Assembly: GCA_013287205.1 (NCBI GenBank)
Contig: JABDEE010000001.1
Coordinates: 4,882 to 68,881 of the forward strand
Direction: 5' to 3'
Origin: Alphaproteobacteria bacterium
Lineage (GTDB): Bacteria > Pseudomonadota > Alphaproteobacteria > UBA9655
Length of the DNA stretch: 64,000 bases
A program made the translations under genes and the position numbers. Every line of letters begins with the position of its first letter. Position 1 is the stretch's first letter. Below are positions 426-62,986 of the stretch, in pieces. Below the pieces are notes generated by a model. That model made no database searches. It saw nothing but the letters and a program-made list of their open reading frames with translations, and was not told the DNA's origin.

Positions 426-899
426 ATGACACAAAAAACTTTTTTATCCACAGTTTCGGCTTTTGTCTTAAGTGTATTCGTTTGCATTCCTTCTTTTCTT
501 TTGGCCAGTCATACTGATAGCAACTCACAAACTGCAGCAGCATCTAGTTCTGCGGCGGCCACTCGTGCAAGTGAACTTACAGACGCTCAAAGAATGTTAA
601 AAATGGCAAGAACAAGACAGCAGACTGCAAGAGTAAAGTTTGTAACGACAAATGGGGCCTTCGTAGCAGCAGAACAATCAGCACGAGATCACAATATCCC
701 CGCCAGCGCATTTTATAAGTCCACGAGACAAGCACAAGGCGCAACAGATGACGCATGGTTAGCATCCGTACAAGCATCAAGGGATGTGTTTTACTTCCAA
801 CTTAGGGCACAATGTGAAGAATTAAAAGAAGAAGCAAGAAAGGACATGCTTGCTGCACGATGCGCAGCATTAAAACAAGATAAAGACGATGTACAATGA
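426..899 (+). CDS. hypothetical secreted protein (157 aa)
   Basis: N-terminal hydrophobic signal-like segment (KTFLSTVSAFVLSVFVC), then an Ala/Gln-rich helical region. No family recognised. Sits between two copies of the dusB 3' end. Confidence 0.5.
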   Translation: MTQKTFLSTVSAFVLSVFVCIPSFLLASHTDSNSQTAAASSSAAATRASELTDAQRMLKMARTRQQTARVKFVTTNGAFVAAEQSARDHNIPASAFYKSTRQAQGATDDAWLASVQASRDVFYFQLRAQCEELKEEARKDMLAARCAALKQDKDDVQ

Positions 900-1006
900 A
901 TAGCTGCCCTATTAGGGCAGTAGTGTTTCGTGCCACGACGCCTGAAGAGGTGGTTTTATGAGAAATCCTGTGAGAACGTTTAGAGGGCGTTGTTAGGAAG
1001 AAAAGG

Positions 1007-1065
1007 GTGTCATCCTCTGCTGTAGCGGGGACCCAGACTTAAGCATTTTTGATAAAAAATATTTT
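1007..1065. repeat. palindromic-element family, left half only (copy A)
   Basis: GTGTCATCC...GCGGGGACCCAGACTTAAGCATTTTT matches the left arm of the full copy at 61751-61875. The right arm is missing. Confidence 0.8.
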
Positions 1066-1116
1066 TCTACACTTCTATACTGCTACACTATGTCCTGACA
1101 ACTTAGGAGTCCCACA

Positions 1117-1569
1117 ATGAGCGCCCTTTCCAAAACACTCTCTTTCCTCATCCTCACCCTCACAGCCCCGTGCATCGCAAGACCTATCCACCCCATTCTT
1201 CTGAAAACGGAGAAATGTGTCCAGGTCAGCAAAACAACCGTAGAAATCGCACGATGCCACACGGACGCGCAAAAGGACTGGCATAAAGAGCTCAATAGCG
1301 TGTACAAAAAACTGACAGGTACAGCTGAAAATCCAGAAACGAAGGCGGCCTTAAAAGAATCTCAACAGGCTTGGGAGGCCTTTCATAAGAAGGAATCTCT
1401 TTTCATAGCCCACTACTATGAGCGTCAAGGAACCGTGTGGGTCATTGTCGGGGCAGAGATGCAAGCGAATGTCGTGAAAGATCGGGTGAGGGAGCTGTAT
1501 AAAATTCTGGAGTCAACAAACATGGCAGGGAATCCCAACGAAGAATATCGATTTGATAAGGATGAATAA
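1117..1569 (+). CDS. DUF1311 / LprI-like (lysozyme-inhibitor family) periplasmic protein
   Basis: Signal peptide. Cys...ELNxVYKKL...QxAWxxF pattern is typical of DUF1311. Confidence 0.65.
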   Translation: MSALSKTLSFLILTLTAPCIARPIHPILLKTEKCVQVSKTTVEIARCHTDAQKDWHKELNSVYKKLTGTAENPETKAALKESQQAWEAFHKKESLFIAHYYERQGTVWVIVGAEMQANVVKDRVRELYKILESTNMAGNPNEEYRFDKDE

Positions 1570-1671
1570 CGAGACCATTTTCGAGTTAAGGCAAGATCAA
1601 AAAACTTGCCATCCCCGCAAAGGCGCACGGGAAAAAAGATGCTTAAAAATGAGCGTCTCTGAGTGCTCCAA

Positions 1672-1716
1672 TGTCACCCCTACAACCCAGGCTTCGCCTG
1701 GGTCGCGGGGATGACA
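1672..1716. repeat. palindromic-element family, 45-bp mini copy (copy B)
   Basis: TGTCACCCC...ACCCAGGCTTCGCCTGGGT...CGCGGGGATGACA lies between DUF1311 and the polA stop (convergent genes). Confidence 0.75.
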
Positions 1717-1741
1717 AATTGAAGCAACCAGGGACACCCCC

Positions 1742-4444
1742 CTAAATCTCCGCCCAATTTTTGCCCACATCTGCTTCCACGACAAGGGGCACGGACAGGG
1801 TTACAATTGTCTGCATGGTGTTCACCACAAGGGGTTTAACGATTTCGATCTCTCCTTCGGGAACCTCTAGGATGAGCTCGTCATGCACTTGGAGGAGAAG
1901 GGCCGCTTTCAGGTTTTTCTCTTTGAGCAACCGGTCGAGTTTCACCATGGCTTTCGTCACGATGTCTGCATTACCGCCTTGGAGGGGCGCGTTGATAGCC
2001 TGGCGTTCCGCAAAGTTGCGACGGTTGGGATCCCGGCTATGGATATCCGTAATAAAACACCGACGCCCCAAAAGGGTCGTAACGTAGCCGTGCTCTCGTG
2101 CCTCTGTCTTCATCCGCTCCATATAGGCGTGAACGCCCGGGTGGTGAGTGAAATAGGCTTGGATGTAGCTTGCCGCACTCTCTCTTGAAATCCCCAACTG
2201 ACGGGCGAGTCCAAAGGCACTGAGTCCATAGATGATGCCAAAGTTAATCGCTTTTGCCCGGTGGCGTAGCTCAGGTGTGACCTCCGCAAGAGGCACACCA
2301 AAGACTTGGGACGCGGTTTGCGCATGAATGTCCCGCCCTTCCACAAAAGCTTGCTGGAGCTCTGGAATGTTCGCCACATGGGCCAACAGACGAAGCTCGA
2401 TTTGGGAATAGTCGGCAGATAACAAAACCATCCCGGGAGGTGCGACAAAAGCCGAGCGAATCTCCCGTCCCGTTTCGGTTCGAATGGGGATATTCTGGAG
2501 ATTGGGGTCAGAGGAAGCCAACCGCCCCGTTGAGGTCACCGTCATCCCATAAGTCGTATGCACGCGATGGGTGTACGGGTTGATTTGAAGGGGAAGGCTA
2601 TCCGTATAGGTGCTCTTGAGTTTTGCTAATTGGCGCCACTCGAGGATCCTCTCCGCAATGGGAAATCCCGCTTCCGCGAGGGTATCTAAAACATCGGCGG
2701 CCGTGCCGTAAGCGCCCGTCTTGCCTTTCTTGCCCCCCGGTAATTTGAGGACATCAAAGAGGATCTCCCCGAGTTGTTTGGGGGAAGCGACGTTGAACGT
2801 TTGACCCGCTTCTTGCTGAATCTGCTGCTCAAGTTCGCTCAGCCTTTTCTCAAGGCTTGCGCTTAGTTTTTTGAGGATAAGCGGATCGACTTTGATGCCC
2901 TTATATTCCATCTCGAGGAGGATCGGGATCAGGGGGCGTTCCAGGGTTTCATAGACCGTACATTGATGCTCTTGGAACAGTCGAGCCTTCAGAAAGGTGT
3001 GGAGTTGCAGGGTGATGTCGGCATTCTGTGCCGCAAAGGGCAGAACTTTTTCGGGGGGTAGGGTCTCAAAAGACACTTTGCTCCGTCCTGCCCCCACCAG
3101 ATCTTGGTAGGTGAGGATCTCTTGGTTGAGATAAACCTTGGCCGCTTCTTCAAGGGCATGGCCGTGCTTCGTGCCCTCCAACACATAAGAGAGCACCATC
3201 GTATCATCGATGGCGGTGAGGTTCACGCCTTGTCTTTTGAGAAGCAGCCCATCACGTTTGGTGTAGTGGCTAATTTTTAAAATCCCGGGGTCTTCTGCCA
3301 GTGGCTTAAAAAAAGCGAGAACGTGGGCCAGGGAGATTTGAGGAGGTGTATGTCCTGGCGTCAAGAGATCCTGCACTTCTCCCTTATGACCGATGGGGAT
3401 GTAGCAAGCCTTTGAGGGCGTGACACTGAGGGACAGGCCAATGATCTCTGCCGTCATGGCGTCTTGAGAGGTCAGCTCGAGTTCAAAGGCCACCTGCCCT
3501 GTCTCTGTAATAGCTTGGGCCCATTTCTTTAAGGCATCTGCCTCTTGAACCAATTCATACTGAACCGCCGCGGGCCTCTGAGCCCCGGGAGTGGCTTTTT
3601 CAAGGCGACCGAGCAGGGTGTGAAAAGATTGAGCCTTGAGGAAAGTGCTGACTTTTTCGAAATCTAAAGGTTGGACCACAAAATCTTGAAGCAACTCCAG
3701 CATAGGGACTTGCGCATCAAGAGAGACGAGCTGTTTTGCGATGCGGGCATCTTCCTTGTGCGTGAGGAGGGCCTCACGACGTTTGGGCTGCTTGATGTCC
3801 TCTGCGTGGTCCAGGAGATTCTCTAATGTTCCATAGGTTTGGATGAGCTCAGCCGCCGTCTTAACGCCAATCCCTGGCACCCCGGGGATGTTGTCTGAGC
3901 TATCTCCTGCCAGGGCTTGTACATCCACAACTTGCGCAGGCGGGACGCCAAATTTTTCTTGCACCTCCTCAACCCCAATGGCCCGATTTTTCATGGGGTC
4001 AAACATGCGGATGGCGCCACCCACAAGCTGCATGAGATCTTTATCAGAAGATACAATCGTAATGTCGCCTTCCAAAGAACGCGCATAGGTTGCAATCAGA
4101 TCATCGGCCTCGAAACCTTCTTTTTCCACGAAGGGCACACTAAAGGCGGTGCAGGCCTCCCGCACGAGGGAAAATTGGGGAATGAGCTCCGGCGGGGTTT
4201 CCTTCCGGTTGGCCTTGTACTGAGGGTAGATGGCGTGGCGGTAGGTTTCCCGGCTGGCATCAAAGACCACCACCAGGTAATCAGGAGATTTCTCGCGGAG
4301 GAGCTTCATCAGCATGGTGGTAAAGCCCATCACCGCGCCCACAGGAACGCCATCAGCGCGGGTAAGGGGGGGCAAGGCATGGAAAGCCCTAAAGATGTAT
4401 CCTGATCCGTCTACGAGGTAGATTTGCGGCTTATTTTGCGTCAT
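1742..4444 (-). CDS. polA: DNA polymerase I
   Basis: 900 aa with 5'-3' exonuclease N-terminus (GSGYIFRAFHA), 3'-5' exonuclease domain and Pol A motifs (DYSQIELR, QVHDELI). Confidence 0.97.
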   Translation of the reverse strand: MTQNKPQIYLVDGSGYIFRAFHALPPLTRADGVPVGAVMGFTTMLMKLLREKSPDYLVVVFDASRETYRHAIYPQYKANRKETPPELIPQFSLVREACTAFSVPFVEKEGFEADDLIATYARSLEGDITIVSSDKDLMQLVGGAIRMFDPMKNRAIGVEEVQEKFGVPPAQVVDVQALAGDSSDNIPGVPGIGVKTAAELIQTYGTLENLLDHAEDIKQPKRREALLTHKEDARIAKQLVSLDAQVPMLELLQDFVVQPLDFEKVSTFLKAQSFHTLLGRLEKATPGAQRPAAVQYELVQEADALKKWAQAITETGQVAFELELTSQDAMTAEIIGLSLSVTPSKACYIPIGHKGEVQDLLTPGHTPPQISLAHVLAFFKPLAEDPGILKISHYTKRDGLLLKRQGVNLTAIDDTMVLSYVLEGTKHGHALEEAAKVYLNQEILTYQDLVGAGRSKVSFETLPPEKVLPFAAQNADITLQLHTFLKARLFQEHQCTVYETLERPLIPILLEMEYKGIKVDPLILKKLSASLEKRLSELEQQIQQEAGQTFNVASPKQLGEILFDVLKLPGGKKGKTGAYGTAADVLDTLAEAGFPIAERILEWRQLAKLKSTYTDSLPLQINPYTHRVHTTYGMTVTSTGRLASSDPNLQNIPIRTETGREIRSAFVAPPGMVLLSADYSQIELRLLAHVANIPELQQAFVEGRDIHAQTASQVFGVPLAEVTPELRHRAKAINFGIIYGLSAFGLARQLGISRESAASYIQAYFTHHPGVHAYMERMKTEAREHGYVTTLLGRRCFITDIHSRDPNRRNFAERQAINAPLQGGNADIVTKAMVKLDRLLKEKNLKAALLLQVHDELILEVPEGEIEIVKPLVVNTMQTIVTLSVPLVVEADVGKNWAEI

Positions 4445-4478
4445 TTAGAGTACTTCCTGTTTAAATGTTCACGCTTCA

Positions 4479-4528
4479 TTGTCATCCCCGTACTCTTCGT
4501 TGTCATCCCCGCCTTCGCGGGGGCGACA
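4479..4528. repeat. palindromic-element family: terminus fragment plus 28-bp hairpin (copy C)
   Basis: TTGTCATCCCCGTACT, then TGTCATCCCCGCCTTCGCGGGGGCGACA, between the ctaE stop and the polA start. Confidence 0.8.
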
Positions 4529-4536
4529 TCCTTGAT

Positions 4537-5310
4537 CTACACCCCCGACCCCCACCAGTAAATGCTGACAAAAAGAAAGAGCCACACGACGTCCACAAAA
4601 TGCCAATACCATGCGGCGGCCTCAAAGCCAATATGCCCTTCAGGGGTGAATTGCCCCAAACGCGCACGGACCCAACACAGGATGAGGAAAAGGGTGCCAA
4701 TGATCACATGAATCCCATGGAAGCCTGTGGCCATGTAAAAGGTCGAGGCATAGATGCCTTCCTTAAATCCAAATGACGCATGGGCGTATTCAAAAGCTTG
4801 AATGGCGGTAAACAGAAGCCCCAAGCAAATGGTGATGCCAATTCCCTTCGAAACGAGCTTTTGTTGGCCCTGCAACAAGGCATGGTGAGCCCAGGTTATC
4901 GTTGTTCCTGAAAGCAAGAGGAGGAGGGTGTTAAAGTAAGGGTAATCAAAAGGATCTATGGGATGAATCCCTTTGGGCGGCCACTGTCCTCCGGCAGGAA
5001 ACAAGCTCACATCAAAAAAGGCCGCAAAAAAAGCGACGAAAAACATGACTTCTGAGATGATGAAGCACACCATCCCTAAGCGAAGTCCTGTCTGTACAGG
5101 GGAGGTATAGGTTCCTTTGTGAGCTGCTTCCTTTAAGACATCATACCACCATCCCCCCATGGTAAAGAGGATTAACCCTAAGCCCATGAGAAGCACATAT
5201 GCACCGTGATTGTGCATCAAAAGAACGAGGCCGATCGCCGACACCAGCGCACCAATGGATCCCACAAAGGGCCACGGACTGGGAGAGACAAGGTGAAAGG
5301 GATGCTTCAT
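4537..5310 (-). CDS. ctaE: cytochrome c oxidase subunit III
   Basis: 257 aa. HPFHLVxPSPWP N-terminus and 7-TM layout with FYxATGFHGxHV and AAWYWHFVDVVW motifs. Confidence 0.93.
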   Translation of the reverse strand: MKHPFHLVSPSPWPFVGSIGALVSAIGLVLLMHNHGAYVLLMGLGLILFTMGGWWYDVLKEAAHKGTYTSPVQTGLRLGMVCFIISEVMFFVAFFAAFFDVSLFPAGGQWPPKGIHPIDPFDYPYFNTLLLLLSGTTITWAHHALLQGQQKLVSKGIGITICLGLLFTAIQAFEYAHASFGFKEGIYASTFYMATGFHGIHVIIGTLFLILCWVRARLGQFTPEGHIGFEAAAWYWHFVDVVWLFLFVSIYWWGSGV

Positions 5311-5315
5311 AGATC

Positions 5316-5346
5316 CAGTGTAGCAGTGTCGCAGACAACAGTGTAG
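5316..5346. repeat. degenerate octamer repeats (CAGTGTAG-like)
   Basis: CAGTGTAG CAGTGTCG CAGACAA CAGTGTAG lies immediately upstream of the ctaE start. Same unit family as the arrays at 47933 and 58851. Confidence 0.6.
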
Positions 5347-5400
5347 TCGTTTGTGAGGCGGGGCGCAGGAAAGGGTCCTGTCGCCTCCTCAATAAACTAA

Positions 5401-6682: not shown

Positions 6683-6902
6683 GTTTATCCCTGTATTTTT
6701 GTACAATTTCTTCTAGATCAACAGGTACATCCATTCCTTTATCAATGCGATCTAGCCGAGCAGACGCAATGAGAGCGTCTTCCTCATCCTCGAGAGACTG
6801 CTCTAGCAACTTTAAAGCATACGTTTTTTTTGAAAGATGGGCTCTGACTGCAAGAGCGCTTAAGCACTTATCCCTTTTCTCAGAAAGGGAAAGCGTAATC
6901 AT
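6657..6902 (-). CDS. RHH-type antitoxin (RelB/ParD-like) of the RelE module
   Basis: 81 aa starting at MITLSLSEKRDK. Acidic EDEEDALIA segment. Its 3' end overlaps the RelE start. The longer ORF to 7037 would overlap ftsI. Confidence 0.7.
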   Translation of the reverse strand: MITLSLSEKRDKCLSALAVRAHLSKKTYALKLLEQSLEDEEDALIASARLDRIDKGMDVPVDLEEIVQKYRDKHGSADLEF

Positions 6903-26371: not shown

Positions 26372-26653
26372 ATGACAAAATCAGAACTGATTAATGAATT
26401 AGGAAAAAAGGTTGGTACACTCACTAAACGAGATGCAGAGCGAGGTGTTAATATTATCTTTTCAAAAATAAGTGGTGCTCTTGAGGCGGGAGGGCGCGTC
26501 GAATTACGAGGATTTGGGATGTTCTCTCTTCGCTATCGCGCTCAACGGGTGGGGCGCAATCCTCGTACGGGAGAGCGGGTTGATGTGGTCGATAAATATG
26601 TTCCCTACTTTAAAGCCGCCAAGGCACTTCGGGATAAGCTTAATGAAGCGTGA
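26372..26653 (+). CDS. ihfB: integration host factor subunit beta
   Basis: HU/IHF fold with ELRGFGxF...RxGRNPRTGE...VPxFKxxK. 93 aa. Confidence 0.85.
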   Translation: MTKSELINELGKKVGTLTKRDAERGVNIIFSKISGALEAGGRVELRGFGMFSLRYRAQRVGRNPRTGERVDVVDKYVPYFKAAKALRDKLNEA

Positions 26654-33708: not shown

Positions 33709-33737
33709 CAGGAGTCAGGAGTCAGGAGTCAGGAAAC
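33709..33737. repeat. tandem heptamer (GGAGTCA)x3 cluster
   Basis: CAGGAGTCAGGAGTCAGGAGTCAGGAAACA lies directly after the yifB stop and contains the stop codon of the convergent SBP gene. Confidence 0.85.
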
Positions 33738-36693: not shown

Positions 36694-37554
36694 ATGAGCT
36701 GGCTTACCACTTTCGTCCGTCCGAAAATCAATGCGTTGATGCATAAGCGGGAGATCCCCGATAATCTTTGGGATCAATGTACCCACTGTGAGCAAATGAT
36801 TTTCCACAGGGATCTGGTGGCCCATCAGCATGTGTGCCACCATTGCGGCCATCATATGCGTATTCCTTTGACGCTTCGCTTTGAGACGCTTTTTGACGAC
36901 GGGCGCTTTCTCCGAGTTCCCGTACCGCCTGTTCCTGTTGATCCGCTTCATTTCAAAGATTCAAAAAAATATACGGACCGGCTCAAGGCTGCCCGTGCGG
37001 CGACAGGAGAAGATGACGCGCTTGTTGTTGTGGAGGGGCATATGGGAGGCCATCCCGTTGTCATTGCTGCTTTCGACTTTGCCTTTATTGGAGGATCCAT
37101 GGGGGCTGCGGTTGGGGAGGGTCTTGTGCGGGGTGCCCAGCGGGCGTGCGAATTGAAAGCTGCTTACATCGTTCTTCCTGCGTCAGGGGGGGCCCGCATG
37201 CAGGAAGGTATTTTTTCCCTCATGCAAATGCCCCGTTCTGTGATCGCGATTGAGCAAGTCAAAGAAGCAGGGCTTCCCTACATTACGCTTCTCACCAATC
37301 CCACCATGGGCGGGGTGGCTGCTTCTTTTGCCATGCTCGGGGATATTGCCATTGCGGAGCCTGGGGCACTCATTGGTTTTACGGGGGCTCGTGTTCTTCA
37401 AGAAACGATCCGCCAAGCGCTGCCTGCTGGGTTTCAAGAAGCGGAGTTTCAGTTCTCCCATGGGATGGTGGATATGGTCACACCCCGTTCAGAGCTTCGT
37501 CAAAAACTCATCGATATTTTGGGGATGCTGTTACCAGGAAACAGGGAACAGTAA
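36694..37554 (+). CDS. accD: acetyl-CoA carboxylase carboxyltransferase subunit beta
   Basis: Zinc ribbon CxxC...CxxC (CTHCEQ...CHHCGH) and GGSMG. Start at MSWLTTF. Confidence 0.93.
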   Translation: MSWLTTFVRPKINALMHKREIPDNLWDQCTHCEQMIFHRDLVAHQHVCHHCGHHMRIPLTLRFETLFDDGRFLRVPVPPVPVDPLHFKDSKKYTDRLKAARAATGEDDALVVVEGHMGGHPVVIAAFDFAFIGGSMGAAVGEGLVRGAQRACELKAAYIVLPASGGARMQEGIFSLMQMPRSVIAIEQVKEAGLPYITLLTNPTMGGVAASFAMLGDIAIAEPGALIGFTGARVLQETIRQALPAGFQEAEFQFSHGMVDMVTPRSELRQKLIDILGMLLPGNREQ

Positions 37555-37567
37555 TCAGGAAATAAAC

Positions 37568-39828: not shown

Positions 39829-39933
39829 ACGTGCTATCAAATAACTATTCTGAAAATTTGACTCCCCAAAAAATTTCCGTATAATGGGGGCAGCAAACAA
39901 GGGGAGGATTGTATCTTGGAAAAAATTGAACCT

Positions 39934-40773
39934 ATGGGTACCCGTTATTTAGATCCAACAAATGATGTTGCTTTTAAGCGGCTCTTTAGCGATAAACCGC
40001 GTCTCAAAGATTTTCTGAATGCGATTTTTCCTGCAGACTGGGCGCCGATTGCTGATCTTGACTTTATTCCCCTTGAAGAAATGCCTGCCGTTTTTTTGGG
40101 GCGCCGGAGTGTTTTTGATCTCAGATGTACGGATGAGACGGGGAAAGTCTACATTGTTGAAATGCAAAATCGCTCCCAAGATGCCTTTTTAAATCGCATC
40201 CAATGTTATGCGTCTCATGCCTATGTTGCTCAAGCCGTTAAGGGAGGGGATCATAGGAACCTCATGCCGGTGATCGTGCTCTCCCTTACCTCCGACAAAC
40301 TTTTTGAGGACGATGTCCCATGCGTGAGTTACCATTGGGATGTGGAACAAACGACGAAGAAGCGCCTTTTGATGGCGATTTCCTATATTTTTGTGGAGCT
40401 TCCCAAATTTAAAAAGACAGAAGCAGAACTCCAGGATATTCGGGACGAATGGCTCTATTTCTTTGCCAATTGGGAACATCTGAAAGCCCCGCCCGAGGAT
40501 CTCAAAGACCCGCTCGTTTTAAGCGCTTACGAGACCATGGAACAATTTAATTGGACCCCGGGGCAATATGATGCCTACTTCAGAATGCGCCTCGCCATAG
40601 AAGCTGACCAGCATGAGATCGAGAGGTCTGAGGAGAAAGGAAGGGCAGAAGGAAGAGTGGAAGAAAAAAAAGAAATTGCTCACAATCTACTTGCAAGAGG
40701 TATGAATCCTGAGGAAATTGCGCGTGTGACCAATCTCCCAGTGGAAGAAATTCGGAAATTTCAGGAGGTTTAA
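39934..40773 (+). CDS. Rpn-family recombination-promoting nuclease / putative transposase (PD-(D/E)XK)
   Basis: LDPTNDVAFKRLF...VYIVEMQ motifs. C-terminal helical EKGRAEGRVEEKKEIA region. Confidence 0.75.
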   Translation: MGTRYLDPTNDVAFKRLFSDKPRLKDFLNAIFPADWAPIADLDFIPLEEMPAVFLGRRSVFDLRCTDETGKVYIVEMQNRSQDAFLNRIQCYASHAYVAQAVKGGDHRNLMPVIVLSLTSDKLFEDDVPCVSYHWDVEQTTKKRLLMAISYIFVELPKFKKTEAELQDIRDEWLYFFANWEHLKAPPEDLKDPLVLSAYETMEQFNWTPGQYDAYFRMRLAIEADQHEIERSEEKGRAEGRVEEKKEIAHNLLARGMNPEEIARVTNLPVEEIRKFQEV

Positions 40774-47379: not shown

Positions 47380-47949
47380 ATGTCAATTTTGTCAGATATT
47401 TGGATTCGTGAGCAGGCCCAGAAGGGCATGATTGAGCCCTTTGTGGAGCGTCAGCATAAGGAGGGGGTCATTTCCTATGGTCTATCTTCCTATGGGTATG
47501 ATGCGCGCGTCGCTGAGGATTTTAAGATTTTTACCAATGTGGATAACGCCTTGGTGGATCCAAAGGATTTCTCGCCCTCAAGTTTTGTCGATCGGACGGG
47601 GCCGATTTGCATCATTCCCCCCAATAGTTTCGTGCTCGGGCGGACGGTTGAATATTTTCGGATTCCCCGAGATGTGCTCGTGATTTGCCTCGGAAAATCT
47701 ACGTATGCCCGGTGTGGGATCATCGTCAATGTGACACCTCTCGAGCCCGAGTGGGAGGGGCATGTGACCTTGGAATTTTCGAATACAACGCCTTTGCCGG
47801 CAAAGCTCTATGCGAATGAAGGCGCTTGCCAGTTCCTGTTTCTCAAAGGGGACCAGGCGTGTGAGACGTCCTACAAAGATCGCGCGGGAAAATACATGGG
47901 GCAGCGAGGGGTGACGTTGCCGAAGATGGCCAGCAGTGTAGCAGTGTAG
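47380..47949 (+). CDS. dcd: dCTP deaminase
   Basis: SYGYDxR...EPxWxGxxTLEFSN...GKYxGQxGVT motifs. The last 6 codons and the TAG lie in the octamer array. Confidence 0.92.
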
Positions 47950-47976
47950 CAGTGTAGCAGTGTAGCAGTGTAGCAG
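47933..47976 (+). repeat. tandem octamer array (GCAGTGTA) x5.5
   Basis: Five perfect 8-bp units plus GCAG. Contains TAG in all three plus-strand frames. Confidence 0.95.
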
Positions 47977-48036
47977 GAGGGGGCCGCTTGTAAAAATGAG
48001 TGTCAATACAAAATATGTTAAAAAGATGAAAATGAA

Positions 48037-51000
48037 ATGATGAAAAAGAACAGTTCGACATCTGCTCCACCGCTCCACCGCTCCACCGCTCCACTGTCTT
48101 CTTTCATTCCCCTCCGCGTTCACACCGCCTACTCTCTCCTGGAAGGGGCGATTCCGGTTAAAAAGCTCATAGGGCTTGCCAAGAAGTTCAATATGCCGGC
48201 CGTTGCGATGACGGATACGAACAATCTGTTTGGGGCGTTTGAGTTTTCGAAGGAAGCCAAAAGTGCAGGGATTCAGCCTCTCTTAGGATGCCAAGTACAT
48301 GTTGGTCCTGAGAAAGATGTCCTTATTCTTCTGGTCCAAAATCAGCAGGGGTACGAAAATCTTCTTAAAATTGTGTCTTATCCTTACCTACAAGGAGAGC
48401 TGACTTTTGAGGTTCTGGCGCCGTTGACAAAAGGTCTCATTGCTCTGACAGGCGGATCTCAAGGGGCGCTTGCGCGTCAGCTTGCCAAGGGACTTGATGG
48501 GGAGGCCACGCTCAAAACCCTTCAGATGCTTTTTGAAGATCGTCTTTACATAGAGATCTCCCGTCAAGGGTCTCAGACGGCTCAGGAGCTGCGGGTAGAG
48601 GAAGGTCTCATCGATCTGGCCTACGCTCACAACGTTCCGCTTGTCGCGACCAATGAGGCCTTTTTCCCCGATCCCTCTTTTTATGAAGCCCACGATGCGC
48701 TGCTCTGTATTGCAGGGGGCACCTACGTTTCGACAGATGACAGGCGGCGGGTCACCCCCGACCACTGCTTTAAGTCGCCGGAGGAGATGGCCTCTCTCTT
48801 TGCAGATCTTCCTGAAGCGATCCTCAATACCCAGGTGATTGCTCAAAGGTGCAGCTTTTTGCTGGAGCCGATTGATCCCATCCTTCCTTCTTTTCCTTGT
48901 GAAGGGGGGGAGGATGAAGAGCTGCGCAAACAGGCTCACTTAGGTCTTGAAGACAGGCTCACACGCTATGTGTTCACGCCCTCTCTATCGGAGGAGGAAA
49001 AGCAAGAAACCCGTGAAAAATACACTGAAAAACTCGACTATGAGTTAGGCGTGATTCAGGGCATGAAGTTCTCAGGCTACTTCCTCATTGTGGCTGACTT
49101 CATCAAATGGGCAAAGGCCAACGGCATCCCTGTGGGGCCAGGGCGAGGATCTGGAGCGGGGTCCGTTGTGGCGTGGTCCCTTACCATTACTGATCTTGAT
49201 CCTATCAAGTTTGACCTGGTGTTTGAGCGCTTCTTGAACCCAGAGCGTGTCAGCATGCCGGACTTTGATATCGACTTTTGCCAGGAGCGTCGGGACGAGG
49301 TTATTCATTATGTGCAGCAAAAATATGGGGCTGATCGGGTGGCCCATATTATCACTTTTGGAAAGCTTCAGGCGCGTGCGGTACTGCGCGATGTAGGGCG
49401 TGTTCTTCAAATGCCTTACATGCAAGTGGATAAAATTTGCAAATTGATTCCGAACAATCCGGCACACCCTGTCACCCTCGAAGAAGCCCTCGAGATGGAA
49501 CCTCAGCTCAAGGAAATGGTGGAGAAAGAGGCGGAAGTGAAACATCTCATGGCCCTTGCCCAGCAGTTGGAGGGACTCTATCGTCATGCGTCAACCCATG
49601 CGGCGGGTGTTGTGATTGGGAATAAACCACTTGATGAAATGGTGCCTCTCTATCGTGATCCAGGATCCGCCCTTCCTGCTACCCAATACAATATGAAGTT
49701 TGTGGAAAGTGCGGGGTTGGTGAAATTTGACTTTCTGGGTCTGAACAACCTGACGGTCATCCAAACAGCGGTTGCCTACCTCAAAGACCAAGGGATTGAT
49801 TTGGATATCTCCAGTCTTCCTTTGGATGATGAGAAGACCTATGAGCTTCTTCGGCGGGCTGAAACCATTGGTATTTTCCAAATTGAAAGTGGGGGGATGA
49901 CCGACCTCACGCGCAAACTCAAGCCAAATCAGATTGAAGATCTTATTACCATCAGTGCGATCTATCGTCCGGGGCCGATGGATAATATTCCGCGCTTTTT
50001 GGCCTGCCGGAATGGGGAGGAAAAACCCCTCTACCTTTATCCCGAGCTCGAAGCGATTTTAGGGAACACCTATGGCATCATGGTGTATCAAGAGCAGGTT
50101 ATGCAGATTGCCCGAAGCCTGGCTGGCTACTCGATGGGAGGAGCGGATCTCCTTCGAAGAGCCATGGGAAAGAAGGTAAAATCCGAAATGGAGGCGCAGC
50201 GGAAGCAATTTATTGAGGGGCTCCTAACCCATACAGGGGGTACACCTGCCCTTGCAAAAGAGCTCTTCGCCCAAGCTGAAAAGTTTGCAAGTTACGCCTT
50301 CCCGCGGGCTCACGCGGCGGCCTATGCCCTCATTACCTATCAAACGGCCTACTTGAAGGCGCATCATCCCGTGGAGTACATGGCAGCCCTCATGACCCAT
50401 GCCCTTACCAATACGGATAAGTTGACGTTGTTTGCTCGGGAAACAACTCGGTTGGGTATTGAGCTTCTCCCGCCCGATGTGAATCAATCTGACGCCCTCT
50501 TTAAAGTAGAAGGGGGAAAGATTCGCTACGCCCTTGCGGCGTTGAAAAATGTGGGTGTTGCGGCGATGGAATCTCTTGTGAATGAGCGCACGCAAAAGGG
50601 TCCGTTTAAAGATATCTTTGACTTTGTGGAACGCTTGGATGGGCGAGTCATTAACAAGCGTCAAATGGAGCACATGATTATGGCGGGCGCTTTTGACAGC
50701 CTTTCCCCAAACCGCAGGCAGTTGATGGACAATCTGGAAATGTTGCTGCGATATGGGAATGAGGATAGGCGCGCCCCCGGCCTCTTTGGTGCTGAGGTTA
50801 TTCGTCCCAAACTTACATCTGTTGAGGATTGGGGGTCGCTTGAGAAGCTCCGTCATGAATTTTCAGCGGTGGGTTTTTACCTGACGGCTCATCCTCTGGA
50901 TGCCTATGCGGATAGCTTGTCTGGCCTTTATGTGCAACCATCTTCTGATCTTCATAAGGTGGAGGAGGGGGAGTCGCGCACATTCCGATTGGCGGGGATT

Positions 51001-56642: not shown

Positions 56643-56708
56643 AGGGTCTCTCTTTCTATCTTTGTTTTGAGAAAGATAGCAGAGGGGTCTTAAGAAAAAG
56701 TAAATTAT

Positions 56709-56767
56709 CAGGAGTCAGAAACCAGGAATCAGGAGGACAGGAAAAATTTCCTGACCCCTGACTCCTG
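56709..56767 (-). terminator. groESL terminator hairpin built from GTCAGGA-type repeats
   Basis: CAGGAGTCAG (56709-18) pairs with CTGACTCCTG (56758-67), with an inner CAGGAAA/TTTCCTG stem. A T-rich tail follows on the minus strand. Confidence 0.6.
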
Positions 56768-56783
56768 TCTTCTGATTTCTGGC

Positions 56784-58444: not shown

Positions 58445-58732
58445 TTATGCGATGATTCCCATGATGTCTGACTCTTTCATGACGAGGTAGTCTTTGCCAT
58501 CCAGTTTGATTTCCGTGCCGGACCATTTGCCGAACAAGATCCGATCGCCTGCTTTGACATCCAGAGGGGTCACTTTGCCATCCTCTGAGCGTGTGCCTGA
58601 TCCGATTGCGATCACTTCCCCTTCCATCGGCTTTTCTTTCGCCGTATCTGGGATAATAATTCCTCCGGCCGTCTTTTCTTCTTGTTCGATGCGACAGACA
58701 AGAACGCGATCATGTAGGGGTCTAAATTTCAT
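58445..58732 (-). CDS. groS: co-chaperonin GroES
   Basis: [12 protein letters not shown]...[13 protein letters not shown] signature. Confidence 0.97.
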
Positions 58733-58772
58733 CTTTTCCTCCTCCGATGGTGGATCCTAATAAGTAGTTGAT

Positions 58773-58799
58773 CTAGCACTCTTTGTACGAGAGTGCCAA
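58773..58799 (-). promoter_or_regulatory. CIRCE element (HrcA operator)
   Basis: CTAGCACTC-N9-GAGTGCCAA compared with consensus TTAGCACTC-N9-GAGTGCTAA. Lies between the promoter and the groES ATG. Confidence 0.85.
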
Positions 58800-58800
58800 A

Positions 58801-58829
58801 TATATAGCGCGTCCCCTTTTTTTTGTCAA
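58801..58829 (-). promoter_or_regulatory. groESL sigma70-type promoter
   Basis: On the minus strand: TTGACA (58829-58824), 17 bp, TATATA (58806-58801), immediately upstream of CIRCE. Confidence 0.7.
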
Positions 58830-58850
58830 GAAAGGCGGATGGCCATTTCG

Positions 58851-58930
58851 GTGTAGCGGTGTAGCGGTGTAGCGGTGTAGCGGTGTAGCGGTGTAGCGGT
58901 GTAGCGGTGTAGCGGTGTAGCGGTGTAGCG
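58851..58930 (+). repeat. tandem octamer array (GTGTAGCG) x10, perfect
   Basis: 80 bp with no mismatches. Starts 21 bp upstream of the groESL -35 hexamer. Confidence 0.97.
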
Positions 58931-58999
58931 GAAGGAAAAAGAATACGAAAAAACATGTCAATTCTTTTCTCCTCTTATTTCTTACTTTTCTGACTAACT

Positions 59000-59023
59000 G
59001 CTCCACCGCTAAACTGCTATACC
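59000..59023 (-). repeat. three degenerate octamers (GCTCCACC GCTAAACT GCTATACC), inverted relative to 58851-58930
   Basis: Same unit as 48064-48095. Separated from the 10x array by a 69-bp A+T-rich spacer. Confidence 0.6.
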
Positions 59024-59119
59024 GTGTTGTAATAAATCGTCATGATCAGTGAGAGGGAGATACACGGAATTTGTAGTATGCTGTGCTTCATAAAAGAACC
59101 TTTAAAGGCAAATGTATCC

Positions 59120-60052
59120 ATGACGCCTCCTTATTCAGCTTCTGTGAGAAAACCCAAGTTCCCTGTCGCCCCTTTGTCGCGTCCTGCGGTGCAGCACCTT
59201 CAAAAAACCCTTGCGACCTCTGTGCGTTGCCAAGGCGTTGGCGTACATTCAGGCAATACGGTGACCATGACGCTTTCGCCTGCGCCTGCAGGAAGTGGGA
59301 TGACGTTTGTTCGCACAGATCTTGGAAATATTGCTCTTAAAGCCTCCTGGAAAACAGTCGTTGATACACAGTTTTGTACGACCATTGGTGATCACAAGGG
59401 TGTCACTGTTTCGACGGTTGAACATCTTCTCGCGGCTCTGGCAGCCAATGGTATTGACAATATTCGCGTGGAGCTTGATGGCCCAGAGCTTCCCATTATG
59501 GATGGGTGCTCTCATTTCTTCTCGACTCTTCTCGAGCAAGCAGGTACCCGGGATCAGCAAGCGCCGCGCCGGATCCTCCGGGTGTTGAAAACGGTTTCCG
59601 TTGCAGAGGGCAGCCGAACGGCGACCCTCTCTCCCTCTCCTTTTTACGAACTCTCTGTTGAGTTTGACTTTGGGGAGCGGGCGTCGATTGAAACACAGCA
59701 TCTCACTTTTCGCCCTTCACGAGACAACTTCCTTAATCTCATTGCACCTGCGCGTACCTTTGGGTTGCTGGCGGATGCGGAAAAATTGCGTGCCGTAGGC
59801 TTAGCAAAGGGAGCCTCCCTTGAGAATACGGTGGTCTATGATGGGTCCAAGGTTTTGAATGAAGAAGGTTTGCGCTACACGGATGAATGTGCCCGCCACA
59901 AGATCCTCGATGCCATGGGAGACCTTCACCTGGCTGGAGGGCTCATCCTTGGTAAGTTCCACGGTGTGCGTGCAGGCCATGGTCTGCATTATAAGCTCCT
60001 TCAGGCTCTTTTTGCGGATCCAACGCAGTATTCAGTAACGAGTGGTCAGTGA
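59120..60052 (+). CDS. lpxC: UDP-3-O-acyl-N-acetylglucosamine deacetylase
   Basis: QKTLxxxVxxxGVGVHSG...TFVRTD...VEHLLAAL...HKxLDxxGDL motifs. Start uncertain (59042 or 59120). Confidence 0.92.
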   Translation: MTPPYSASVRKPKFPVAPLSRPAVQHLQKTLATSVRCQGVGVHSGNTVTMTLSPAPAGSGMTFVRTDLGNIALKASWKTVVDTQFCTTIGDHKGVTVSTVEHLLAALAANGIDNIRVELDGPELPIMDGCSHFFSTLLEQAGTRDQQAPRRILRVLKTVSVAEGSRTATLSPSPFYELSVEFDFGERASIETQHLTFRPSRDNFLNLIAPARTFGLLADAEKLRAVGLAKGASLENTVVYDGSKVLNEEGLRYTDECARHKILDAMGDLHLAGGLILGKFHGVRAGHGLHYKLLQALFADPTQYSVTSGQ

Positions 60053-60382: not shown

Positions 60383-61756
60383 TTATCTCCCAAACATCCC
60401 CCAGGACAGCAGCACAAACAACGGTAAGAGGACGGCCAAGGACCAGGCCATGTATCCAAAGAAGCTGGGCATTTTGACGCCATAGCTTTCAGCTACGGTT
60501 TTGACCATGAAGTTCGGGGCATTGCCGATATAAGTCATGGCGCCCATAAAGACGGATCCTAAGGAAATCGCCACCAGTGTCTGAGAGAGGGTCGACATCA
60601 AGATGTTTGCGTCTCCCCCCGCCATGTGGAAAAACACAAGGTAGGTCGGTGCATTATCCAGGAAGGAAGACAGGGTCCCGGAGAGCCAAAAGTACATGCT
60701 ATTTTGAGGCTGTCCATTGGCGCTTACAAGGGCAATGAGGGAGGAGAGGGCGCCATTCTTTCCTGCATCTAAAATGGCTGTGACGGGGAGCACGGTCATA
60801 AAAATGCCAAAGAAGAGTTTGACGACCTCCTGAAGTGGTTCCCAAGAAAAGTGATTCACTTGCCGAATATGGGGGGCGGTAAAGTGGTAGGAAATGAAGC
60901 TCAAGAGAATGAGGCCGCCATCCCTCACAAGATTCTGAAGATCAAGGGAGGTTCCGCTAATCGTAAAGGTAATCTCAGGTTCCCACACGCCACTGAGAAT
61001 CACAAGTCCCATGACACCGAGGAAGAGAAGCGCGTTATCGCCTCCCTTCATCGTCACGAGAGGGGTGGAGCGTAACGGTGAAATTTTCTCCACCTCACGC
61101 ATCACAAAGCGATCCACGCCATAAAAAATGAGGAGAATGGCCGCGGCGGTGCAGAGCATGGGGAGGGCCAAGGATTGCATTGTCCACAAGAAATCGACGC
61201 CATTTAGAAATCCGAGGAAGAGGGGAGGGTCGCCCAGAGGCGTGAGGGCGCCTCCCACATTTCCCACCATAAAAATGAAGAAGATCATGTGGTAGGCTTG
61301 ATGTTTGCGCGTCGCGTTCATCTTGAGAAAGGGGCGGACGAGGAGCATGGCGGCACCTGTGGTGCCTACCCATCCGGCTAGCAAAGTGCCGACCGCTAAA
61401 AAGCATGTGTTCATAAAGGGGGTTGCTGGGGACCTTACGGAAATTTGGATGCCGCTGGCAATGGTGTAGAGTGTGCTCATCATGATGATGAAGGGGAGAT
61501 AATGGTGGAGGAGCATTCCTAAAATCGCCTGATGAGTCAGGGACCATCCAAATTCTGTGCTGAGACTGAGAACAGTGATCATGGCCCAGGCCATTGCCAC
61601 TTTCCCGTAGTGTTTTTCCCAAAACCGCATGGAGATCAGGGGGAGGAACGCAAGAGACAGAAGCATGCCGAGAAAGGGGATGACCCAGGTGAGCTCCAAG
61701 GTGTGGCCTGGGAGGATGCTTGGGTTTGCGGAGAGGGGGGAGTTCCAACTTGTCAT
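60383..61756 (-). CDS. ArsB/NhaD-superfamily ion transporter (putative Na+/H+ antiporter)
   Basis: Polytopic membrane protein (WVIPFLGMLLSLAFLP...FWEKHYGKV...GNAPNFMVK). Only the C-terminal 457 codons of the 806-aa ORF are credible. The proposed ATG lies in the terminus of element copy L. Confidence 0.75.
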   Translation of the reverse strand: MTSWNSPLSANPSILPGHTLELTWVIPFLGMLLSLAFLPLISMRFWEKHYGKVAMAWAMITVLSLSTEFGWSLTHQAILGMLLHHYLPFIIMMSTLYTIASGIQISVRSPATPFMNTCFLAVGTLLAGWVGTTGAAMLLVRPFLKMNATRKHQAYHMIFFIFMVGNVGGALTPLGDPPLFLGFLNGVDFLWTMQSLALPMLCTAAAILLIFYGVDRFVMREVEKISPLRSTPLVTMKGGDNALLFLGVMGLVILSGVWEPEITFTISGTSLDLQNLVRDGGLILLSFISYHFTAPHIRQVNHFSWEPLQEVVKLFFGIFMTVLPVTAILDAGKNGALSSLIALVSANGQPQNSMYFWLSGTLSSFLDNAPTYLVFFHMAGGDANILMSTLSQTLVAISLGSVFMGAMTYIGNAPNFMVKTVAESYGVKMPSFFGYMAWSLAVLLPLFVLLSWGMFGR

Positions 61757-61875
61757 CCCCGCGAAGGCGGGGACCCAGACTTGAGCATTTTTTAAAAAGT
61801 TCCTAACAAAAAAATTTTTTGAAATCAGAGACAAAAAGAATTTAAGTCTGGGTCCCCGCCTTCGCGGGGATGACA
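61751..61875. repeat. palindromic-element family, copy L (125 bp)
   Basis: TGTCATCCCCGCGAAGGCGGGGACCCAGACTTGAGC...TTTAAGTCTGGGTCCCCGCCTTCGCGGGGATGACA. Confidence 0.92.
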
Positions 61876-62047
61876 AGTGGGGGTGCGGAGATGACAATTT
61901 ACGTATGGCCTGCACTCCACGAGATAGTTTGAGATGCTGCCTCCCGACCCCTGATCCTTGACTCCTGACTCCTGACAGACTTGACATCTTCCCCCCTTCC
62001 CTCCATGGTTCCTCGATAAAATCAGTATAGGGGATAAGGGTGAATTC

Positions 62048-62986
62048 ATGAAAGCGTTTCTTTTTCCAGGACAGGGATCTCAGCACATCGGGATGGGGCG
62101 TGAGCTCTATGACACCTTCGCGTGTGCGCGGGAGGTATTTCAAGAAGTGGATGAGGCTTTGAGCCAAAATCTCACACAGGTGATGTTTGAAGGACCCGAC
62201 GACGAACTTGTCCGCACCGAAAATGCGCAGCCCGCACTCATGACTGTGAGCATGGCCGTGATGCGGGTGCTTGAAAAGGAAGGAGGACATACGCTTCCTC
62301 AGATGGCGTCTTATGTGGCTGGTCATTCCTTGGGCCAGTATGCGGCTCTGTGTGCCGCCCAGTCTTTGACATTGTCTGAGACGGCGCGTCTTTTGAAGCT
62401 GCGGGGCCAGGCGATGCAGCAGGCTGTGCCGCTCGGGGAAGGGGCGATGGCGGCTGTCCTTGGGTTGGAGCTCGAGGTGGTTGAGGACATTGTGAAACAA
62501 GCGGGCATGGGGGAAGTGTGCGACGTTGCCAATGACAATAGCCCCGGTCAGGTGGTCATCAGTGGTCACGCCCACGCCATCGACCGTGCGATTGAGCTTT
62601 CCAAAGAGCGAGGCGCGAAGCGGAGTCTTTTGCTTAACGTGAGTGCCCCTTTTCATTGTTCCTTGATGATGCCAGCGCAAGCGCGCATGGCGGAAGCTCT
62701 TGGTGAAGCCGTTATTTCTGACCCTCGTGTTCCCGTGATGGATAACGTTACGGCAACGGTGGTGACAAGTGGGGATGCGTTGCGGGATCTTCTCGTGCAG
62801 CAAATGACAGGGCGCATTCGGTGGCGGGAGAGTCTGATGGCCTTAGCAGATCTCGGTGTCACCACCGCCGTTGAGGTGGGGGCGGGCAAAGTTCTCACGG
62901 GTCTTGCAAAGCGGACGGTTCCGACCTTTGAAACGGTGACCTTGAACACGCCCGCTGATATTGAAGCCTTTTTGAAATCAATTTAA
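62048..62986 (+). CDS. fabD: malonyl-CoA:ACP transacylase
   Basis: FPGQGSQ...GHSLGQY(A) active site. 312 aa. Confidence 0.95.
   Translation: MKAFLFPGQGSQHIGMGRELYDTFACAREVFQEVDEALSQNLTQVMFEGPDDELVRTENAQPALMTVSMAVMRVLEKEGGHTLPQMASYVAGHSLGQYAALCAAQSLTLSETARLLKLRGQAMQQAVPLGEGAMAAVLGLELEVVEDIVKQAGMGEVCDVANDNSPGQVVISGHAHAIDRAIELSKERGAKRSLLLNVSAPFHCSLMMPAQARMAEALGEAVISDPRVPVMDNVTATVVTSGDALRDLLVQQMTGRIRWRESLMALADLGVTTAVEVGAGKVLTGLAKRTVPTFETVTLNTPADIEAFLKSI

Follow-up and report, generated by a model that had tools for sequence, protein, structure and literature searches.

Ten perfect copies of an octamer lie directly beside the promoter of the groESL heat-shock operon in a 64,000-nucleotide stretch of DNA from a soil alphaproteobacterium (contig JABDEE010000001.1; hereafter the window), and this arrangement raises the question of whether the array serves the promoter or belongs to something else. 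An earlier note on this DNA had placed the array in upstream promoter (UP) element or activator territory and proposed that its copy number tunes expression. The analysis points elsewhere: with a probability of roughly 75%, a 176-bp member of a dispersed family of non-coding, hairpin-forming repeats lies here, the array being its expanded left arm and not a dedicated heat-shock control device.

The octamer array is the left arm of a 176-bp element

The groES/lpxC copy spans positions 58849–59024 and comprises a left arm, a core and an inverted right arm. The left arm, (CGGTGTAG)x10, occupies 58849–58928 on the plus strand and, read directly from the sequence, contains no mismatch; Tandem Repeats Finder describes the region 58849–58931 as a period-8 repeat of 10.4 copies with 100% matches and a score of 166. 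The ten perfect octamers noted earlier, in the phase GTGTAGCG (58851–58930), are thus real and represent the identical array. The core (58929–59000, plus strand) is a 72-bp, A+T-rich, palindromic segment (GGAAGGAAAAAGAAT ... ATTCTTTTCTCC) that nhmmer assigns to a subfamily termed B (E=2e-23) and that also matches its own reverse; its conserved TGTCAAT, at 58955–58961, sits close to the apex of the predicted hairpin. The right arm (59001–59024, minus strand) consists of three degenerate inverted octamers, CGGTATAG CAGTTTAG CGGTGGAG in the minus-strand reading, and has a fixed sequence common to the paralogous copies L129, L133 and L128. Read toward groES, the order is inverted octamers (59024–59001), 72-bp A+T-rich stretch, array, a gap of 19 bp, promoter, CIRCE (controlling inverted repeat of chaperone expression) operator and ATG. 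This agrees with the order described earlier, in which the other phase gave 69 bp for the core and 21 bp for the gap.

On the plus strand the left arm carries TAG in all three frames, while its complement is free of stops in all three. Two minus-strand open reading frames (ORFs) of 75 and 77 codons run through the array (58729–58956 and 58773–59006; peptide repeat TPLHRYTA); their existence depends solely on the absence of stops from every frame of the array's complement, and they were rejected as genes, being likely false gene calls.

A dispersed family with convergent octamer arms

Analysis reveals 13 full copies of this architecture, two in the window and the others in related uncultured alphaproteobacteria. 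These come from the closed 1.46-Mb chromosome of an uncultured alphaproteobacterium (L094), whose LpxC is 64% identical to that of the window, from a JGI metagenome contig (L120; LpxC 77% identical), and from nine metagenome stretches (L126–L134) retrieved by a pattern that required both arms. All 13 follow a common plan, in which a left CRGTGTAG arm pointing at the core is followed by the core and by a right inverted arm that reads CTNNACYG on the same strand; the inward polarity of the arms is fixed in every copy. The unit consensus is CRGTNNAG, mostly C[AG]GTGTAG, with six of the eight positions (C-R-G-T-..-A-G) kept in both arms of all copies. The cores measure 55–95 bp, are A/T-rich and always contain TGTCAA(T/G), which in L094 takes the variant form AGTCAAT.

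Such arms are far in excess of expectation in the window, where two in-phase CRGTNNAG units occur 18 times against 0.01 expected and octamer arms number 5 against 0.06 in shuffled sequence. A control set of 123 arrays was drawn, together with L094, from a scan of genome contigs for CRGTNNAG x4, a loose pattern that reaches many phyla. Among the matches listed, a convergent partner accompanies only 3 of these 123 unrelated octamer simple sequence repeats (SSRs) of other phyla, and convergent pairing is therefore a property of the octamer-armed family. The same comparison bears on whether the array could be a stand-alone microsatellite or an assembly artefact. The ten-unit count is that of the assembly, and the k=31 contigs of both public runs that contain the organism end inside the array, so its perfection and these breaks could suggest such an origin. 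It is nonetheless scarcely credible, as array, core and inverted arm recur in independent assemblies (JGI, ENA, Logan and the closed 1.46-Mb chromosome) and as an inverted partner is so rare among unrelated octamer SSRs.

The second full copy in the window, a 163-bp member of subfamily A, lies between dcd and dnaE at 47934–48096 on the plus strand. It is composed of (CAGTGTAG)x5 at 47934–47973, an A+T-rich core beginning CAGGAGGGGGCCGCTTGTAAAAATGAGTGTCAAT..., and (CGGTGGAG)x4 on the minus strand at 48065–48096, which in the plus-strand reading is (CTCCACCG)x3 followed by CTCCACTG. The likeness between the two loci that had been pointed out earlier, namely array, A+T spacer and inverted array, is thereby confirmed.

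Subfamily A comprises the dcd/dnaE copy, L120a, L127, L130, L132 and L134, with a core of the form CAGGAGGGGG..C-TTGTAAAAATG.GTGTCAAGAGGAAA... together with an A-rich stretch in which a Shine–Dalgarno-like motif and an ATG are frequent. Subfamily B comprises the groES/lpxC copy, L129, L133 and L128; here the core is itself palindromic, and folding of the complete element gives a long hairpin whose apex is TGTCA (z = -6.6 to -8.2). As single-stranded DNA (ssDNA), the groES/lpxC copy gives a folding z of -6.6 and other copies give -7.4, -9.9 and -8.2. The consensus hairpin has 19 arm pairs, and the homogeneity of the left arm leaves no compensatory covariation; among right-arm variants, C-to-T changes, which preserve G-U pairs, are frequent.

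This strong hairpin potential could also act at the RNA level, where the arms would pair in mRNA and either stabilise the upstream cistron or be cut by RNase III, thereby uncoupling the flanking genes, as in REP (repetitive extragenic palindromic)/BIME (bacterial interspersed mosaic element) and Correia repeats. The intercistronic copies at nuoE/nuoF, dcd/dnaE and rplT/lipA and the retained G-U pairs fit such a role. It is very unlikely, however, as an account of the family: the groES/lpxC copy is probably in neither mRNA, because the groES promoter and the conserved block ahead of lpxC both lie downstream of it in their respective directions, compensatory base changes are lacking, and Rfam returned no family match for either window element, its only hits being weak miRNA-like matches on a heptamer hairpin after groEL.

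That the family spreads as intact elements is evident from L133 and L129, which are 86% and 88% identical to the groES/lpxC copy over arms and core while their flanks are unrelated; whole elements have therefore been dispersed, not octamers alone. In the source sample, summed contig word depth (Logan) rises from about 73–118 in the flanks to 760–5100 over the arms, a rough sign of dozens of copies, some of them in other organisms of the sample, and loose contig ends such as CGCTTGTAAAAATGGATGTCAATA reveal further copies with the same core. Over 47994–48056, within the dcd/dnaE core, Logan contigs of both runs show zero depth, with flanks at 73–118x in run X1; this may be a filter artefact for an A-rich stretch or a real assembly difference.

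The distribution is patchy. An unbiased 21 kb of L120 contains four arms, whereas the GROS21 relative has none over 29.5 kb and the relative whose DnaE is 81% identical has none over 9.4 kb. Searches with nhmmer profiles of the subfamily A and B cores returned the known copies only, with no arm-less core, and CRGTGTAG x3 arrays were not found in viral contigs. Among the papers searched, none contains the octamer arrays as text, and a keyword search gave no relevant result.

Besides the two full copies, the window carries two solo degenerate arms. One, TAGTGTAG CAGTATAG AAGTGTAG (1067–1090, minus strand), lies 26 nt upstream of the start of a gene for an LprI-domain secreted protein. About 30 bp away, at 1005–1040, is the end of another palindromic family (of the GTCATCC...GGGGACCCAG type), which is also present at approximately 61750–62050, and different repeat families cluster within shared intergenic gaps. 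The other solo arm, CAGTGTAG CAGTGTCG ... CAGTGTAG (5316–5350, plus strand), lies 5 nt upstream of the start of coxC (4537–5310, minus strand); no partner arm was found beyond the neighbouring toxin–antitoxin cassette.

The CAGTGTAG unit also forms convergent arms around quite different cores in L131 (1268–1400), a G+C-rich contig in which the element adjoins an ORF for a group II intron-type reverse transcriptase, and in L126 (860–1000), a very A+T-rich contig. These cases reflect either convergence or an arm unit whose range extends past the alphaproteobacterial clade.

Two functions for the conserved core motif were considered and rejected. TGTCAA corresponds to TTGACA on the opposite strand, as an element-borne sigma-70 promoter would require, but no usable -10 hexamer lies at 16–18 bp on either strand of any copy. 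Likewise, the integration host factor (IHF) consensus WATCAANNNNTTR is unmatched at TGTCAA in the copies when compared by eye.

The element fills a synteny gap beside the groESL promoter

The groESL promoter lies on the minus strand at 58801–58829, with TTGACA (58829–58824) and TATATA (58806–58801) separated by 17 bp, and is followed by the CIRCE operator TTGGCACTC-N9-GAGTGCTAG (58773–58799), groES (Cpn10; 58445–58732, ATG at 58732) and groEL (58427–56784), all on the minus strand. This promoter is missing from the output of a consensus promoter scanner, owing to a rule that demands T at the last -10 position. On the other side of the element, the lpxC upstream region (59025–59119, plus strand) leads to the lpxC ATG at 59120; groES, groEL and lpxC were identified by Pfam and homology. 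The array therefore does lie, as described earlier, within the shared groES/lpxC divergent region, with its end 19 bp from the -35 hexamer. It stands outside both genes and outside the -35/-10 spacer, which is fixed at 17 bp, and so is not placed where its length would change promoter geometry or reading frame.

Comparison with relatives identifies what is conserved at this promoter. Metagenome scaffolds L135–L137, from a relative with 97% GroEL identity, have TTGACA-17-TATATC and CIRCE ahead of groES, and the octamer array is absent from the 333-bp upstream region up to a divergent OPT transporter gene. Since the orthologous promoter lacks it, the array is not a conserved part of the CIRCE/HrcA groESL control region. 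Homology between the window and this relative begins at the -35 hexamer. On the lpxC side, L122 (LpxC 80% identical) is probably the same organism as the GroEL-97% relative and derives from the same sample as scaffold L136; its lpxC upstream homology to the window starts at TGTTGTAA, the first bases past the right arm. Homology thus flanks the element on both sides, and its 176 bp occupy precisely the unconserved stretch that separates the promoter region of groES from that of lpxC. The gap coincides with a change of gene order in the window's lineage: ctaB is immediately upstream of lpxC in L122, and the order in L120 is ctaB-orf-lpxC.

The location at a synteny breakpoint, together with the fixed inward polarity, could favour a Chi-like role in which the arms are recombination-hotspot arrays aimed at a fragile core, so that breaks would lead to RecA-dependent repair and rearrangement hotspots. 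Every CGGTGTAG unit contains AGCGG, the Chi sequence of Bacillus subtilis AddAB, which may not be that of the host lineage. A single breakpoint is an anecdote, however, and many arms use CAGTGTAG, which lacks AGCGG; this role is accordingly regarded as extremely unlikely.

The genomic contexts of the copies are diverse. They include likely operons (the three intercistronic loci named above), tandem genes (hisS-like/cox1 and mlaD/DUF2155-like), divergent genes (ctaG/addB) and, in L133, convergent genes with stops inside the arms; some copies lie within coding 5' ends. A promoter-specific function therefore does not fit tandem, divergent and convergent contexts alike. With respect to groESL itself, the array is G+C-rich and hence not an UP element, and the wider proposal of a groESL-directed role as activator array or copy-number tuner is unsupported, as the array belongs to a dispersed element and is missing from the relative's promoter. 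As far as sequence can tell, tuning of groESL is thus not supported and rather unlikely.

A binding function, essentially the idea of the earlier note, would treat the octamers as an iterated target of some chromosomal DNA-binding protein (a global regulator or nucleoid-associated protein, for instance) whose occupancy scales with unit number, so that the ten-unit arm modulates groESL and lpxC. Conservation of six of eight unit positions across arms, copies and genomes at 64% LpxC identity is compatible with this idea, as are the short distance to the -35 hexamer and the presence of an HU/IHF-type gene in the window (26372–26653). Moreover, paired tandem-octanucleotide sites of Geobacter metallireducens have been proposed to bind a global regulator or IHF/HU (PMC2700814), although binding in Geobacter is a proposal only. 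The copies nevertheless show no promoter preference, being found in operons, between convergent genes and in translated 5' ends; the close relative keeps -35, -10 and CIRCE without an array; the distribution among relatives is patchy; and no candidate binding protein was identified. On balance this function appears quite unlikely.

The other end of the operon carries a different palindrome. After the groEL stop, at 56706–56783, the sequence in the groEL direction reads (NCAGGAN)x5, AAAATTT, (NTCCTGN)x5 and then a T-rich run, which is probably the terminator hairpin of the groESL operon and a member of a sister, heptamer-armed family. With this palindrome after groEL and the octamer element before groES, groESL is flanked by two different unit-armed palindromes. 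Solo heptamer arrays adjoin gene ends at 33709–33736 (CAGGAGT x3.7), 37535–37562 (CAGGAAA-like x4) and 61937–61976 (inverted CCTGACT x5), and a loose contig end in run X2 shows such heptamers directly adjoining an octamer array at another locus.

Copies remodel gene ends at dcd/dnaE and other loci

The dcd/dnaE locus provides a direct comparison between filled and empty sites. In a relative whose DnaE is 81% identical (L141/L142), dcd and dnaE are 3 nt apart (...ATGGCTATAG AAG GTG TCC...), which represents an orthologous empty site. Relative to it, about 25 nt have been replaced in the window by the 163-bp element; no target-site duplication distinguishes the filled from the empty site, and no direct repeat is present at the borders.

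Both neighbouring genes are altered by this replacement. The stop codon of dcd in the window is a TAG inside the left arm. DnaE begins MF[IV][PH]LRVH in nearly all relatives, whereas the window reads ...SSFIPLRVH and has lost that ATG. Beyond the preceding stop, ATG 48037/48040 within the element core is the earliest canonical start; from there the frame crosses the right arm, and the next in-frame canonical start would delete the conserved N-terminus. Because the relatives' ATG is lost and the next start lies too far in, the only usable start of dnaE is the ATG supplied by the element. The resulting extension of about 22 residues (MMKKNSSTSAPPLHRSTAPLSS; 48037–48105) is encoded in part by the inverted octamers.

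Comparable overlaps occur elsewhere. At 6734–6860 and 8560–8625 of L120, the called cox1 and ctaB frames cross inverted octamer arms, and the cox1 ATG lies within the element core behind a GAGGAAA motif. At 2117–2758 of L094, twelve degenerate inverted octamers are translated as a hydrophobic N-terminal segment of a DUF2155-like protein, where they may serve as a signal-peptide-like region.

The fixed polarity of the arms suits these positions. Read inward, CRGTGTAG presents TAG in every frame within 24 nt, and its complement, read outward, contains no stop in any frame, so that genes reading into the element end soon and those reading out of it can begin within its core. This property would explain how copies survive against or overlapping gene ends.

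Unit number varies in the untranslated arm

The left arm ranges from 2 to 12 units among the copies. Within subfamily B, left arms of 2, 4, 9 and 10 units surround a conserved core and a fixed right arm, the pattern expected if unit number changes after copying. The suggestion made earlier that the perfect 80-bp array reflects recent expansion is therefore plausible, given that copies sharing its core differ so widely in length.

Translation appears to set the limits of this variation. In what is a small sample, arms with at least 5 perfect units are never translated past their first units, and translated arms are degenerate or have at most 3 perfect units. The groES-side arm is entirely non-coding, which fits its length. 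Translated arms would be kept short or degenerate because a change of one 8-nt unit shifts the frame; replication slippage would accordingly proceed freely where an arm is untranslated and meet counter-selection where it is translated.

Relation to known repeat systems

Among published architectures, the closest layout is that of the predicted global regulator binding sites of Geobacter metallireducens (classes 1–3; Aklujkar et al. 2009, PMC2700814), which form opposite-strand pairs at 8–24 places. Each site is a tandem run of about four octanucleotides in class 1 or of five heptanucleotides in class 3; the sites have variable spacing, are intergenic, for example at proB/proA, and have been catalogued, with IHF/HU binding proposed only (PMC2700814). 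The present family shares with them the dispersed convergent pairs of tandem octamers (13 copies, with arms 55–95 bp apart), and the window also contains a heptamer sister family. The units differ, however, being GTTGCTYN (class 1), TCTCCGTS (class 2) and MTYCTGA in Geobacter and CRGTNNAG here, in a different phylum, and neither a long perfect arm nor the donation of start and stop codons is reported for the Geobacter sites (PMC2700814). The octamer-armed family thus resembles them in kind while being a family of its own.

The nearest well-studied systems are REPINs and BIMEs, hairpin-forming doublets of inverted REPs around a spacer whose movement is attributed to RAYT (REP-associated tyrosine) transposases (Bertels & Rainey 2011; PMC3116915, PMC3337134). 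Like REPINs, the octamer-armed elements have inverted repeats around a less conserved spacer of tens of bp, a predicted hairpin in ssDNA or RNA, many copies per genome, a lineage-specific distribution at gene borders, and families with distinct cores. The REP itself is a unit of about 20 nt with its own imperfect palindromic core (PMC3337134), whereas the arm described here is a variable-number tandem array (2–13 units) of a non-palindromic 8-nt unit; neither this unit nor its concatenations are self-complementary. Furthermore, octamer-armed copies, unlike REPINs, overlap coding ends and donate stop and start codons, and no RAYT gene is present among the 50 window ORFs scanned. Short dispersed repeats at gene borders, with many copies lacking a gene, are also a feature of the Ssn/NTS system, in which a small GIY-YIG nuclease recognises a dispersed repeat (PMC11893778); no GIY-YIG gene occurs among the same ORFs. 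The lack of a target-site duplication at dcd/dnaE likewise separates the element from miniature inverted-repeat transposable elements.

Among intracellular-type alphaproteobacteria, small palindromic repeats tolerated in reading frames have precedent. Rickettsia palindromic elements and other in-frame alphaproteobacterial palindromes add peptide segments to essential proteins. The Rickettsia elements are reportedly unique-sequence palindromes of 100–150 bp, internal in genes and without tandem-unit arms; the octamer-armed copies differ from them in remodelling gene termini. Phase-variable contingency SSRs of Haemophilus and Neisseria are locus-specific and lie in the -35/-10 spacer, in a regulator site or in an ORF. 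The groES-side array resembles them in being a short tandem repeat that is perfect, prone to slippage and promoter-proximal, and whose copy number could in principle alter expression. Unlike them, it forms one arm of a dispersed element, stands clear of the core promoter and has no counterpart at the orthologous promoter.

A candidate mechanism and its limits

In the mechanism that would account for these observations, copies of the element can overlap gene ends harmlessly and even replace the native stop and start. An arm that remains untranslated would then grow and shrink by replication slippage, which may have produced the ten mismatch-free units at groES/lpxC. Nearness to the CIRCE-controlled promoter would be a by-product of insertion or of an element-associated rearrangement, a reading suggested because the copy fills a non-conserved gap at a synteny breakpoint. 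By analogy with REPIN/RAYT systems, a trans-acting enzyme might recognise the hairpin or the octamers. The retention of unit and polarity across 64% LpxC identity and the occurrence of CAGTGTAG around unrelated cores suggest that something reads the arms.

Several points weigh against assigning the array to a mobile repeat family. No mobility mechanism emerged, there being no target duplication, no transposase or nuclease for it in the 50 ORFs, and no insertion or excision polymorphism among strains. Pfam found no match to RAYT (Y1_Tnp), PF13366 or GIY-YIG among these ORFs, no ORF lies between the arms in any of the 13 copies, and no insertion sequence sharing these terminal inverted repeats occurs in the sequences examined. 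In addition, the octamer consensus persists across genomes with 64% LpxC identity, so that a host protein could read it with a regulatory side effect, and the array ends so near the -35 hexamer that sequence alone leaves room for an effect on groESL transcription. The copies are also few, and part of them were retrieved by a pattern that demanded the architecture.

The only nuclease- or transposase-like gene among the 50 ORFs encodes a 285-aa PDDEXK_2 protein (Rpn/YhgA-like 'nuclease family transposase'; 39916–40773, E = 5e-37), and no octamer arms surround it.

A bolder extension of the mobile-repeat interpretation can be formulated, and is offered as a tentative and rather improbable one. 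A dedicated trans-acting protein, for example a hairpin- or ssDNA-specific nuclease or a transposase, would read the unit and copy 'unit-armed' hairpins to gene borders. The family would then be the alphaproteobacterial branch of a cross-phylum, essentially undescribed class, with elements built into essential genes (the dnaE start and the cox1 and ctaB N-termini) and a slippage-prone arm that, beside promoters such as that of groESL, would give reversible, heritable variation in local DNA structure and expression.

Significance

For groESL, the finding calls for caution, since the array is best treated as the passenger of a dispersed family and annotation should label it neither an operator nor an UP element. 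Of most use is the evidence that gene ends, the dnaE start among them, are remodelled by these copies. The family shows how a small palindromic repeat can be built to be harmless at gene borders, with stops in all frames inward and open frames outward, how it can come to provide the stop and start codons of adjacent genes, among them the sole usable start of dnaE, the essential replicative polymerase gene, and how one of its arms can behave like a hypervariable microsatellite. Short-read assemblies fragment at these elements, which also give rise to spurious long ORFs and N-terminal extensions, so that recognising such copies leads to better annotation of genomes from uncultured alphaproteobacteria. 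Should a cognate enzyme exist, it would provide a new sequence-specific tool and the family would represent a new kind of mobile DNA.

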